64,000 nucleotides of DNA from positions 1,936-65,935 of the forward strand of contig JALGSV010000015.1 of the NCBI GenBank assembly GCA_029821755.1. Reading direction: 5' to 3'. This DNA comes from Candidatus Zipacnadum vermilionense (lineage in GTDB: Bacteria > Armatimonadota > Zipacnadia > Zipacnadales > Zipacnadaceae). Positions 8,733-52,000 of the stretch are shown one piece after another. The notes under the pieces are model-generated. The model did not search any database. It saw only the letters and a list, made by a program, of their open reading frames with translations, and was not told where the DNA came from. The translations under genes were made by a program, and so were the position numbers. Position 1 is the stretch's first letter. Each line of letters begins with the position of its first letter.

Positions 8733-8833
8733 GCGTGGCGCGGGCTCTCTATCCCGCGCTCCCCTGTGCGGACGCGGGCGGGCTAGAAAGCCCGCCCCAC
8801 GCGAAACGAGACAGAAAGCCCACCCCACGCGAG
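8733..8833. repeat. cluster of 2.5 REP/MITE-like palindromic elements (A1 8733-8766 variant, A2 8775-8803 inverted, A3 8814-8833 partial)
   Basis: Contains GCGTGGCGCGGGCTCTCTATCCCGCGCTCCCCTG, then CGGGCGGGCTAGAAAGCCCGCCCCACGCG, then GAAAGCCCACCCCACGCGAG. These match the element family found at six other loci. Confidence 0.6.
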
Positions 8834-8843
8834 AATAGTCCCC

Positions 8844-9737
8844 ATGAAATGTCCCCCTCATCGGTCCCCTTGGTTGGCGCGGCGGGGGTGGGTACAAGCT
8901 GTCTCCACCGTCGTGCTCAACCTTGCGTTTCTGCGGTTTCTCGCGCCCCTCAAGTCCGCGGGGGGCTTCTGCTTCCCCGTGCTCAATTGCTGGGCCTGCC
9001 CCGGCGCGGTGACCTCCTGCCCCCTTGGGGCGCTGCAGCATGCCGCCGGCGAGGCGCGGCTGCTGGTGGCTAGCGGCACGAGCTGGCTGGCGGTGATCCC
9101 CTATTACATCCTCGGCACTCTCTTCATCTTCAGCGTGACGCTGGGGCGCTTCATGTGTGGCTGGTTGTGCCCCTTCGGGTGGCTGCAAGACCTGCTGGCG
9201 AAGCTGAGCAAATACAAGCTGCGCCCGCCTCCGTGGGCCGGCTACCTGCGGTACGCGTTCTTGGTGGGTCTGGTGCTGGTGGTACCGTACTACACCAGCG
9301 TACAGTGGTTCAGCAAGATCTGTCCGCAGGGGGCGTTGCAGGGGGGGCTGTTGCAGCCGCTGCTGCACCCGGAGCTGCGCGGGGGGATCGGGGCGTGGTG
9401 GTGGTTCAAGGAGGCCATGCTGGTAGCGTGGCTGCTGTCCTTTGTCTTCGTGCGGCGGCCCTTCTGCCGACTGATGTGCCCGCTGGGGGCGATCTTCTCG
9501 CTATTCTACGGCCTCAGCGTCCTGCAGATTCGGGTTGACCCGCACAAGTGCGTGGACTGCGGGTTGTGTGAGCAAGTCTGCCCGGCAGGGCTGAATCCGC
9601 GGGAGCAGGTGTCCAGCCACCTGTGTATATCCTGTCTGGAATGCCAGAGATGCCCGCAGGGAGCGATAGCGGCGGTGCCGGTGTGGAGGAAGGACAGGCG
9701 AGAGGAGACAGTAGGACTGGAGGAGCAGGTGCCGTAA
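8844..9737 (+). CDS. membrane-bound polyferredoxin (NapH/MauN-like 4Fe-4S binding protein)
   Basis: Several TM segments plus CWACPGAVTSCP, CGWLCPFG, CRLMCPLG, CVDCGLCEQVCP and CISCLECQRCP iron-sulfur cysteine motifs. Confidence 0.75.
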   Translation: MKCPPHRSPWLARRGWVQAVSTVVLNLAFLRFLAPLKSAGGFCFPVLNCWACPGAVTSCPLGALQHAAGEARLLVASGTSWLAVIPYYILGTLFIFSVTLGRFMCGWLCPFGWLQDLLAKLSKYKLRPPPWAGYLRYAFLVGLVLVVPYYTSVQWFSKICPQGALQGGLLQPLLHPELRGGIGAWWWFKEAMLVAWLLSFVFVRRPFCRLMCPLGAIFSLFYGLSVLQIRVDPHKCVDCGLCEQVCPAGLNPREQVSSHLCISCLECQRCPQGAIAAVPVWRKDRREETVGLEEQVP

Positions 9738-48985: not shown

Positions 48986-49098
48986 GATGCTGTCCCGGCC
49001 GTATGGTACTCCCGCCGTGGCAAAGGGACAAGCAAACGCCAGGGAGGCACCCGCGCCCCGACGTTCCCCGTCGGTGTGCAACGACCAGCGACCTTCCC

Positions 49099-52000
49099 CT
49101 ACATGTGCCCCTTCTCCCGCCGCTCCTCCAGCGTCTCGTAGTCCTCACTCATCCGCTTTTCGGCCCCCGCGGCCAAGGGCACGCCCAGGCTGGTCAGCAG
49201 GCAGGTCAGGTACCGCCGCGGCCGCTCGGGCTCCTCGATCCGCGCGTCGTGCCAGGCCAGGTTGTCGATGACCAGCGTGCCGGCGCCGACCTGGTAGATC
49301 GTTACGGCCCCGCGACGGGTGATCTGGGCCGCCTCGCTCTCGCTCACTCTGATGAGCGCGCTGGCCGGCTCCGGGTGTAGCGGCGCCTGCGTCCAGGGCG
49401 CCACCTTCGCCTTGTCCACGATCCAGTACAGATAGTTGTTGGTCATCCCGTCAGCCAGGGGGCGCGTATGCCGGAAGACGTCGTACTCGCGCCGCCCCGC
49501 TGCTCCCGGCTCTACCTCGCCCGGCAGCTCCAGCGCCCGTAGCACTTCCCGCGTCTGCTCCACGGTCAGGTCGTGGAGGCACACCGTCCGCCCGGCTTCC
49601 AGCGCTCCACCCAGGGCCGCCACCGTCTCCGCCGTCACGCACTCCCCATCTACCAACGCCACCTGCGCGCCTAGCGCCTCCTGCGCCGACACTATCTCTC
49701 CGGTGTAGCCCACCTCCCGCAGCCGCTGCATACTCCTGTCGCCGACTGCTACGCTCGCCTCCGCTAGCGGCTGCCTGGCCTCGTACGCGGCCATACGCTG
49801 CACGATGTCGGCTACGCGCGGGGCCTGCACGAGCTTGCCGAAGAGGTCCAGTGAAGACACCAGCCAGCTACCCTTGCCGTCCCGCACTTCCAGCAGCGGT
49901 GAGGAGGTCAATCCAGTCCGGCTGGTCCCCGCCACCAGCAGCGGCAGCACGTTGCCCTCCTGCGGCGTCTCGAAGCAGCGTCGCGCCACGTAGTAGTCCT
50001 CGCCCCACAGCGCGAAGTCCTCGTCGGAGAGACCCTCCCCGAGCGGATGGTGCGGTGCTACGTTGTAGGCATAGGTGATCTCCAGCCGCTCCCCTTCCGC
50101 GTTGCCCGGCCCGTTCGCCAGCGGCACTGGCAAATCGGCCAACACCTCCTCCGTCGGCTGATCCAGCACTACGCAGCCCCCGCCCTGCACGAACTCGCGC
50201 ACTGCCTTGCTCATCTCGCGCCAGTCGGCGTTATTGACCTTCGCCTCCGCGAAGTTAAGCCACAGGACCCCGAACCCAGCCAACACCTCCTCCGTCGGCC
50301 GACAGTGCAAGGTGGTCGCGCCTTCGATCCCCCGCGCCTCCAGCCGCTCCGCCCAGGCTCCGTCCGGGTCGTGGAAGGCGCACCCGGAGGGGAACTCCGG
50401 CGCATACGTCCGCGGCCAGACGCCCCACACCCTTTCCCACGCGTCCACCGTCTGCCCGCCGGAGGTCATCTCCACCCGGTAGGTCAGCTCCAGCGGCGCG
50501 TCCGTCTCGGGCGTGCGGCAGCGGTTCGTGAAGGCGCGCACCTCTCCCGGCTCATACACCGCCGGCGGCATCAAGTCGGTCCAGATGACCTCCCCCTCGC
50601 GGAGTACGTCGCAGCGCAGCGCCAGCTCCCGCGCCTCCCGCGTGTCGTTGTGCATGGACATCTCCACGGTGATCTCATCTCCCGCGAAGTACTGGCTCCG
50701 GTAGGAGTGGTCCAGGGCCGCCAGAGGCCGGACCGCTTCCGTGTGCGCGGCGACGTGCGGCGCCGCCAGGCTCTTGTGTGGGTCGGTCTCATGCCCCAGC
50801 ACAAAGGACCAGGCGCAGAACCCCGACACATCCAGCCGCCGGTAGGACTTGACCTCCAGCGGCCACAGCTTCTCATCCACCCGCGCCGAGCCGAAGTCGC
50901 GATCCTCGAAGGCCGCGTCCCCGACGATCGACGCTTGGCTGTCTGGCGTGGCCCCGTAGACGCAGGTGAACTCGCCGAAGATCAGCGGCTTGTCCCGCCG
51001 CCAACTCCACGAGGGCATCTCGTGCCGATGCGACCCGTACCAAGGGAAGAGGAAGGAGCTATCCAGCCAGTAGGCGGTATGCGGGAAGTCGGGGTAGGCC
51101 GCCCAGCTCTTGGGGTAGTGCAGGTTGTACATCGGCAGCTTCCCCAGGAAGTCCATGGCCGAGGACATCTGGATTATCCGGCTGTCGTCCTCCGCCTCGG
51201 TCGCGGCGATGATTCGCTCAAAGGCGCGAGTCAGCGCCGCCATCTTGGGGTTCTCCAGGTCCGCTGGGGTGATCGGCGACATCTCGTTGGAGAGGGACCA
51301 GATCACCACTGAGGGGTTGTTGCGGTCGCGCCGTACCAGGGCCTCGAGGAAGTGGTTGCTGACGTTCTCGGAGCAAGCTTCCTCCTGCCCCGCCCAGTCG
51401 AAGGAATGGAAGCCGGTGGTCCACAACGCCGTCTCGGTAGTGATCAGCACCCCCACCCGGTCGGCGGCCTCCACCCAGCGCTTGTCCTGCGGCCGAGCGT
51501 GCAGCCGCACATGCACGATGTGTCCCTCCTCCTTCCACACCCGCAGGAACTCCATCTTCTCCTCCAGCGACAAGTTGTGCTGTGGCGGGGCGACATGGCC
51601 GGAGTTCCCATGCAAGTGAATCTTCTTCCCGTTCAGGTAGAAGTGCGGTCCGTCGATGGTGAACTCGCGGAAGCCGAAGCAGTCCTCGTGGAGGTCGACG
51701 ATCTCCTCCGCGTGGGGCGGGCTTTCCAGCCCGCCCTCCCCGGTGGCACCGGCGGCTCGCCGGTGCGGGGTGGGGGTCAGCACCGTCCGCAACTGGTACA
51801 ACCACGGGTCATCCAAGTCCCACAACCGCGTCCCCTCCCACGGCACCTCCCGGTAGACCTTCGCCGTCCCCTGTGGCGGGATGGTCACGTCCTCATCGAG
51901 CAGGACCTTGCCCTCCACGGCCTCACTGAAGATGTGGACTTCCGCCGGCTGGTCGGTGTCGTTGGCCAATACCGCCGTGTATTGCAGTACTTCGGCCGCC

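Follow-up and report, generated by a model that had tools for sequence, protein, structure and literature searches.

What are the short palindromic repeats that recur through the 64-kb stretch of contig JALGSV010000015.1 analysed here (referred to as the window), and how do some of them come to lie inside protein-coding genes? We conclude, with a probability of roughly 85%, that they are a family of repetitive extragenic palindromic (REP) elements of the GTAG-tagged class, mostly bearing the tag GTGG, mostly present as inverted doublets (REPINs), presumably mobilised by a REP-associated tyrosine transposase (RAYT), and in some cases carried in-frame within genes. The window is taken from a metagenome-assembled genome (MAG) and has a GC content of 64–72% throughout (about 67% for the chromosome). 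Its Obg, a GH2-like protein and a hypothetical protein all have Armatimonadota MAGs as their nearest named relatives, and judging from these proteins the host is probably a member of the Armatimonadota. Deinococcus SRE/SNR repeats, a guess from the GC content, were dropped because the Obg homologs place the window near this phylum. Contig FWPV01000315.1 of assembly GCA_900174595.1 (loci L106 and L109; L and P numbers refer to loci and proteins throughout) is syntenic with the window from 22.6 to 44 kb.

The initial annotation had described a repeat family at nine or more loci. The family itself is real, palindromic and recognisable at the nucleotide level. The dyad GGGCGGGCT-N4-AGCCCGCCC has six matches in the window with at most two mismatches, compared with 0.03 expected from dinucleotide-preserving shuffles, and the 26-nt end CGCGTGGSGCGGGCTTTCTAGCCCGC has ten matches with at most three mismatches, compared with none in 100 shuffles. 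With an nhmmer profile of the ends we found 12 significant ends (E 4e-10 to 9e-7) and one weak thirteenth end at 8807–8831 (E=0.039). The count is what had to be revised: taken together, motif matches and nhmmer resolve to a single repeat at seven loci, with an additional half copy and a remnant. Five of the seven loci are two-ended inverted doublets of 62–83 bp, while the other two are single REPs. The remnant, previously placed at approximately 1831–1848, is a probable decayed piece of the element terminus located in intergenic sequence at 1826–1839 (+ strand). It reads CGCCCCACGCGGAG, an exact 14-mer of the terminus that has five exact matches in the window against 0.29 expected, and is non-significant by nhmmer alone (E=1.7). 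We rejected a phage origin, as megablast of 12 kb of the window against a phage collection returned no match, and CRISPR, as the spacing of the copies in the window is irregular (no search for cas genes was made).

The REP unit is about 35 nt long and consists of an outer extension, (CTCC)CGC, the tetranucleotide tag GTGG (sometimes GTAG), and the hairpin GCGGGCT-TTCY-AGCCCGC, in which the stem GGGCGGGCT/AGCCCGCCC encloses a 4-nt loop. GTGG or GTAG stands directly 5' of the stem in 10 of 10 window ends. In the two-ended copies a second unit follows 10–40 nt away in inverted orientation, and the whole reads GTGG-hairpin ... hairpin-CCAC with the tags facing outward, which is the REPIN arrangement. 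In single-stranded DNA or RNA, such a doublet could form a single long hairpin. When DNA folding was compared with shuffled controls, the z-scores across units and doublets ranged from -2.3 to -6.7; the minimum free energy structure of the copy at 24058–24119 is one long hairpin (-31.3 kcal/mol, z -6.7), and for the single units the energies are -13.8 and -15.0 kcal/mol (z -4.8 and -3.3). Covariation points the same way. Among 169 distinct copies, the base after the tag and the base after CCCGC are G..C in 71, C..G in 80 and another combination in 18, and this compensatory pattern supports the hairpin. An Rfam scan of the whole window at gathering thresholds returned nothing but a tRNA-Ala, and thus no known RNA family for the repeats.

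Four of the seven loci were described in the initial annotation as lying within open coding frames, and alignment of the host proteins to orthologs was proposed there as a check. The frames are open and read as given, and orthologs without the inserts were found for the intragenic copies; by these alignments, all four are true in-frame insertions in real genes. The insertion in obg (28067–29413, + strand) is well documented. This gene contains a 62-bp REPIN at 28975–29036 and encodes 22 additional residues (approximately 303–324), absent from eight Obg orthologs that are 82–89% identical and mostly 425–427 aa long. The empty site can also be seen at the DNA level in L105 and L107, where window positions 28971–29038 replace 2 bp, giving a net gain of exactly 66 bp. 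The Pfam domains GTP1_OBG, MMR_HSR1 and DUF1967 are intact on either side of the element. By sequence alignment the insert falls in the G domain between the NKxD and SA motifs, and in an AlphaFold2 model built with 80 homologs (mean predicted local distance difference test score, pLDDT, of 87.3) it lies between the helix at 287–302 and the strand at 329–331, with pLDDT below 50 at 310–321. The model thus predicts a low-confidence coil in a G-domain loop. At the same loop, the obg gene of FWPV01000315.1 (L106:10900–10960; P0003) carries a different insert of 10 aa (SGKQEQ...SPYPAR; 30 bp), which appears decayed and whose DNA is in places similar to the REPIN's right half. The loop is either a recurrent insertion site or the place of an old insertion that has decayed.

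The two single REPs also lie within genes. One, at 43299–43333 (+), is found in the gene of a hypothetical protein (42504–43913, - strand), where it encodes SGEGGLESPPYT and adds 13 aa. This insert is absent from P0123, P0124, P0126, P0128, P0129, P0131, P0133 and P0138, recognisable in P0122 and decayed in P0127; at the DNA level, L157 lacks the 39 nt and L110 has a recognisable REP, GGGGAGGGCGGGCTGGAAGCCCGCCCCACGCG, at the equivalent position. The other, at 51709–51743 (+), is found in a GH2-like glycosidase gene (49099–52740, - strand) and encodes TGEGGLESPPHA, with about 10 extra residues (TGEGGLESPP) relative to P0242 and P0244; the peptide across the insert junction would be GEGGLESPPHAEEIVDLHEDCFGFR. 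Here the insert is situated inside a lineage-specific loop, and more distant homologs are without the entire loop. The DNA of L156 at this site may itself be a decayed REP. Synteny with the FWPV01 contig ends before the GH2 locus.

The fourth intragenic copy, a 62-bp REPIN at 24058–24119 with arms 92% complementary, lies within the first 32 codons of a membrane-protein gene (22531–24132, - strand) and reads MSASARSAGFLAHAGEGGLESPPHADRKVRWP. The ortholog in L106 (L106:4774–6270) is 73% identical from window residue 33 onwards, which aligns to its residue 7, and in the poorly aligned region of L106 no counterpart of the copy is recognisable. The gene still overlaps the upstream GT2 gene through an ATGA start/stop, and when the frame was read up to the conserved transmembrane segment, no further in-frame ATG, GTG or TTG was seen. 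Together, these two observations argue that the REPIN is most likely translated, as an N-terminal extension of about 26 residues. REPs at the N-terminus are often truly extragenic (Di Nocera, De Gregorio & Rocco, 2013, BMC Genomics 14:522; PMC3733652), and this case is the least certain of the four.

The four inserts have properties in common. As the initial annotation had anticipated, their lengths preserve the frame, being multiples of three (66, 39 and about 30 nt, and about 78 nt in the N-terminal case), and the REP-encoded additions amount to 10–26 residues rich in G, E, S, P and R. Three of the four copies read GEGGLESPP(H/Y)(A/T), while obg reads WRGLSSPR in a different frame. Searching with the 31-aa REPIN-encoded peptide gave no match at E<=0.001 among 1.84 billion representatives, with a query too short to be informative. 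The proposal that the elements were selected to be open in both orientations is unneeded: between three and six of the six frames of each copy are stop-free anyway (five and six for the singles with a TTCC loop), and a length that is a multiple of three together with a tolerant loop suffices. Nor is in-frame insertion unusual for a high-GC genome, as had been suggested, since many in-frame GTAG-type REPs have been tabulated, most of them in Opitutus terrae with a GC content of 65% (Di Nocera et al., 2013).

We also asked how the intragenic share compares with other genomes. It is four of seven loci in the window (three to four of seven by the heuristic used for the comparison) against about 6 of 147 sites (about 4%) elsewhere, a rough estimate from a crude spanning-ORF (open reading frame) heuristic that chose the antisense frame for obg. 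With n=7 loci, the enrichment in the window is suggestive. Candidate intragenic copies were seen in other phyla at L076:4101–4132, L039:6693–6720, L129:2375–2401 and L135:6829–6862, in ORFs of 369–1184 aa. They read WRGLSSP(R/H), RGLESPRYA or EGGLESPPHA, as do the window frames; the GEGGLESPP and WRGLSSPR frames recur in the candidate copies of L076, L039, L135 and L110. Taken in part from candidate genes, this recurrence suggests that survival is restricted to hydrophilic peptides with a high content of G, S, P and E.

The three intergenic copies all lie between unidirectional or convergent genes, where REPs mainly sit (Di Nocera et al., 2013). The 72-bp REPIN at 8732–8803 (two inverted REP hairpins with ends defined by motif and nhmmer; -28.1 kcal/mol, z -4.0) is flanked by two + strand genes, encoding a xylose-isomerase-like TIM barrel (7660–8565) and a 4Fe-4S protein (8844–9737), and is adjoined by the extra half copy at 8807–8831 (- strand), which is partly decayed and ends in CCCACGCG. 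Convergent genes, ackA (38608–39858, +) and DUF4127 (39985–41640, -), flank the 83-bp REPIN at 39895–39977, which was found by nhmmer (fold z -4.3); in the syntenic L106, whose spacer aligns poorly, nothing recognisable corresponds to it. The remaining 72-bp REPIN, at 27577–27648 (-26.9 kcal/mol, z -3.4), is located between the stop codon of rplU (27570–27572) and the Shine-Dalgarno sequence and ATG (27670) of rpmA. The copy formerly given as 27616–27649 is real and proved to be just the right half of this element. Each of the rplU-rpmA spacers compared (window 27573–27669; L105:2380–2510; L107:8362–8420; L108) has a strong hairpin or REP-like doublet, the sequences differing, so that relatives show other hairpins or a stem-variant REP doublet in this place. 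In L107 the GTAG tag provides the rplU stop codon. The spacer hairpin may have been conserved as a post-transcriptional element separating the L21 and L27 cistrons.

The family extends well beyond the window. In an exact scan of one genome per species, the 23-mer core GTRGSGCGGGCTTTCYAKCCCGC was found at at least 104 loci, where well under ten were estimated by chance, and it is multi-copy in individual MAGs of at least seven other labelled groups. The labels comprise Armatimonadia, Chloroflexia, Dehalococcoidia, Thermoanaerobaculia and other Acidobacteria, Thermodesulfobacteriota, delta-proteobacteria/Syntrophobacteraceae, Verrucomicrobiia and Phycisphaeraceae. Flanks of the external copies vary by genome, a GTRG tag 5' of the stem is present in copies from these loci too, and inverted doublets of the form GTRG-hairpin ... 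hairpin-CYAC are common. By scanning metagenome contigs with the window-type extension CGCGTRG... we detected 45 loci, including two further FWPV01 contigs, and the metagenome locus L125 has a REPIN whose spacer, TCGGGAGAG, is identical to that of the obg insert.

In some of these genomes the core is organised differently. The Armatimonadia MAG binchicken_co39_10 has it in head-to-tail tandem arrays with periods of about 37–64 bp and a single orientation, unlike the inverted doublets of the window (L015:1551–1700, L024:30–290, L037:6567–6780 and L010:4366–4452; one unit reads ...GCCGTTGGTGGGGCGGGCTTTCCAGCCCGCCGCCGTTGACCGTTGC...). A composite repeat of about 130 bp, near-identical at a dozen loci (L111, L113, L124, L127, L128, L133, L138, L141, L145 and L149–L151, from metagenome Ga0209979 and others) and present also in L054, has the outer inverted repeat GAAAAACCCAGGCC...GGCCCGGGTTTTT around a REP heterodimer with unlike stems (CGCGGGCT/AGCCCGCG and CGGCC/GGCCG). 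Lastly, the Thermodesulfobacteriota MAG126 carries the core within a conserved unit of about 80 nt, TAACTTCCGATTCGTGTCAGATCAGGGCTT-GTGGGGCGGGCTTTCCAGCCCGCC-AATCGGTGGAAACTAACGAGAACCGC, at six loci (L001:390–500, L028, L034, L035, L044 and L079); this unit may represent a structured RNA, or else the terminus of a different mobile element.

Which enzyme might move these elements was approached without bias by translating all ORFs of the at least 104 loci and clustering them all against all. The large recurrent families near REPs were uninformative, consisting of histidine kinases, ABC transporters and similar common paralogs. One small family, from three different MAGs, is Pfam Y1_Tnp. Against the NCBIfam model NF047646 (REP-associated tyrosine transposase, cut-off 80) its members score 83.1 bits (L014), 96.7 bits (L089) and 68.5 bits (L058), the last being below the cut-off and shortened by the contig end. 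In L014, GTAG-CGCGGGCTTTCGAGCCCGCG lies upstream of the gene and two copies in inverted orientation lie downstream of it, the classic arrangement of a REP-flanked RAYT, and in L058 the RAYT gene borders directly on a REPIN at its 3' end. The RAYTs beside REPs are only 27–40% identical to each other.

By analogy with characterised REP/RAYT systems, the window repeats would be non-autonomous elements mobilised by a RAYT of their own genome, that is, by an HUH tyrosine transposase of the IS200/IS605 type, which would excise and insert single strands and create no target duplication. The two single REPs would most likely be half-decayed or truncated copies. When a GC-rich and nearly stop-free element with a length that is a multiple of three enters a tolerant surface loop or an N-terminus, the protein would be expected to keep working. 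Several points weigh against this reading. Neither the window nor the 45 metagenome loci contain a RAYT detectable by tblastn with the three RAYT proteins, and a Pfam scan showed no transposase among the window ORFs. The RAYT of L089 adjoins a REP doublet with a different stem, and therefore supports the class and not this exact REP family. Doublets are better conserved than singlets in P. fluorescens (Bertels & Rainey, 2011, PLoS Genet 7:e1002132; PMC3116915), whereas the two intragenic singles of the window are near consensus and no more decayed than the doublets. The hypothetical-protein gene has a REP at one site in the window and in L110, in orthologs only 68% identical, so that either repeated insertion at a hotspot or unusual conservation is needed. 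In addition, we infer the translation of the REP inserts from their sequence, and assembly of repeats in a MAG may be imperfect.

How would other kinds of element account for the same data? The initial annotation had seen terminal repeats in the style of a MITE (a miniature transposable element with inverted repeats). A classical MITE would be a deletion derivative of an insertion sequence with a DDE transposase. It would rely on a transposase acting in trans that binds its terminal inverted repeats, and its insertion would produce a target-site duplication. Two-ended copies of 62–83 bp with inverted ends of about 24 bp, variably present among relatives, are what one would look for, but each supposed terminal repeat is itself a palindromic hairpin with a GTRG tag, the signature of a REP, and the ends are in fact two inverted, self-folding REP hairpins. 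One-ended copies exist, no insertion sequence is present, and no target-site duplication or other flanking direct repeat is visible by eye, without a systematic scan, either around the five two-ended copies or in the comparison with the empty site of obg, where the net gain is exactly 66 bp. Furthermore, the sole protein family that abuts the repeat elsewhere is the Y1 HUH transposase and not a DDE enzyme, and we regard a MITE as very improbable. We give practically no credence to the idea that GEGGLESPPHA is a conserved protein motif or short domain repeat from which the nucleotide similarity follows secondarily. Three intragenic copies do share the frame GEGGLESPP(H/Y)(A/T), but identical nucleotides occur in the three intergenic spacers and in both orientations, obg is read in a second frame, close orthologs are without the segment, the host proteins are mutually unrelated, and the segment in Obg is modelled as a low-confidence coil. 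This agrees with the earlier description of a repeat at the nucleotide level.

Somewhat less remote, though still unlikely, is the view that the elements are kept by the host as structures, either hairpins that stabilise or process mRNA or binding sites for a protein on DNA, instead of or besides being selfish DNA, with the intragenic copies as by-products. The placement of the three intergenic copies between unidirectional or convergent genes, one of them precisely after the rplU stop and ahead of the rpmA ribosome-binding site, would be in line with such a role, and REPs in general show an equal placement bias (Di Nocera et al., 2013). Relatives also retain some hairpin in the rplU-rpmA spacer despite the differing sequence, and compensatory changes keep the stem. 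Intrinsic termination is not the function, since the window elements have no T-tract. What selection by the host leaves unexplained is the spread of copies, the doublets, the adjacency to RAYTs and the intragenic copies, and it is compatible with a RAYT-mobilised REP family rather than a replacement for it.

Some other features of the window were observed alongside the repeats. A tRNA-Ala with anticodon GGC (16739–16814, - strand) is the only RNA gene detected. Just after the 4Fe-4S gene (8844–9737), at 9773–9810, the arms GGGCGGATGTTGCGGCT / AGCCGCAACATCCGCCC form a perfect inverted repeat of 17 bp around a 4-nt loop, which looks like a terminator and is unrelated to the REP family. The cumulative GC skew peaks at about 38–40 kb (window 38000–42000), being positive before and negative after, and the peak coincides with the convergent ackA/DUF4127 pair and with a switch of the predominant coding strand; the peak may mark a replication terminus or simply reflect the coding strand.

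In-frame insertion of REPs is an already described phenomenon. New are this REP family, its host phylum, the well-documented insertion in obg, and a single REP core common to MAGs of many phyla. The results extend the GTAG-type REP/REPIN class to an Armatimonadota-like genome and provide clean, ortholog-backed examples of a REP or REPIN in-frame in conserved genes, including the gene of the essential GTPase Obg. Annotators of high-GC MAGs should expect such inserts, which are neither frameshifts nor assembly errors nor new domains, and the near-identical REP core across phyla offers a lead on the evolution of RAYT-REP recognition. The observations can also be combined into a more far-reaching proposal, which we consider doubtful at present: that this Armatimonadota lineage takes REPs and REPINs into coding sequences far more often than other hosts (four of seven against about 4%), with two peptide-friendly frames and recurrent loop insertion in diverged orthologs, and that the 23-nt core is kept across at least seven groups through an ancient RAYT-REP recognition code or transfer between phyla. 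If true, REPs would be a regular source of new protein loops, beyond occasional tolerated accidents.

With regard to known systems, the in-frame palindromic elements of Rickettsia (RPEs), which likewise add short, apparently tolerated peptides, share the outcome alone (Ogata et al., as cited in Di Nocera et al., 2013), and RPE-4 and RPE-6 have been placed among the REPs tagged CGTC rather than GTAG (Di Nocera et al., 2013). RPE-1 is longer and resides in an AT-rich genome, whereas the host of the window has 67% GC; the two are set apart by description, with no RPE sequence compared. To our knowledge, RPE-1 has no known transposase. Much closer is the REPIN-RAYT system, in which REP doublets (REPINs) are the presumed replicative unit and singlets are viewed as remnants (Bertels & Rainey, 2011). 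Two inverted REPs with a spacer forming a hairpin of about 60–110 nt and the occurrence of singlets are found in both, and the association with a Y1 transposase related to IS200/IS605 is seen for the present core in other genomes. REPINs were described as extragenic, however, while the doublets of the window occur also in obg and at the 5' end of a gene, and the intragenic singlets here are no more decayed than the doublets.

The family agrees with known descriptions of REPs and REPINs in every feature tested, the cognate RAYT of its own genome being the sole defining feature outside those tests. Its closest counterpart is the superfamily of GTAG-tagged REPs (Di Nocera et al., 2013). The window family has a stem sequence and, outside the tag, a CGC/CTCC extension of its own, and Armatimonadota were not part of that survey. 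With four of seven loci intragenic and just three extragenic in 64 kb, the intragenic share is far above the usual, for n=7 only and for a count that covers the window and not the genome. In the survey, in-frame REPs were recorded in several species, with about 70 O. terrae rows in the supplementary table, and in-frame singles encode about 8–12 aa and dimers 20–30 aa. There, too, the tag degenerates to GTRG, being GTGG in most O. terrae GTAG-20 units, and stands beside a GC-rich stem of 6–9 bp with a short loop. Likewise common to the GTAG-tagged REPs and the repeats described here are sub-families that differ in complementary pairs of stem bases, inverted dimers (spacers of 20–100 bp in the survey), a location of intergenic copies mainly between unidirectional or convergent genes, in-frame copies and RAYT genes flanked by REPs, the last being seen here in other genomes with this core.

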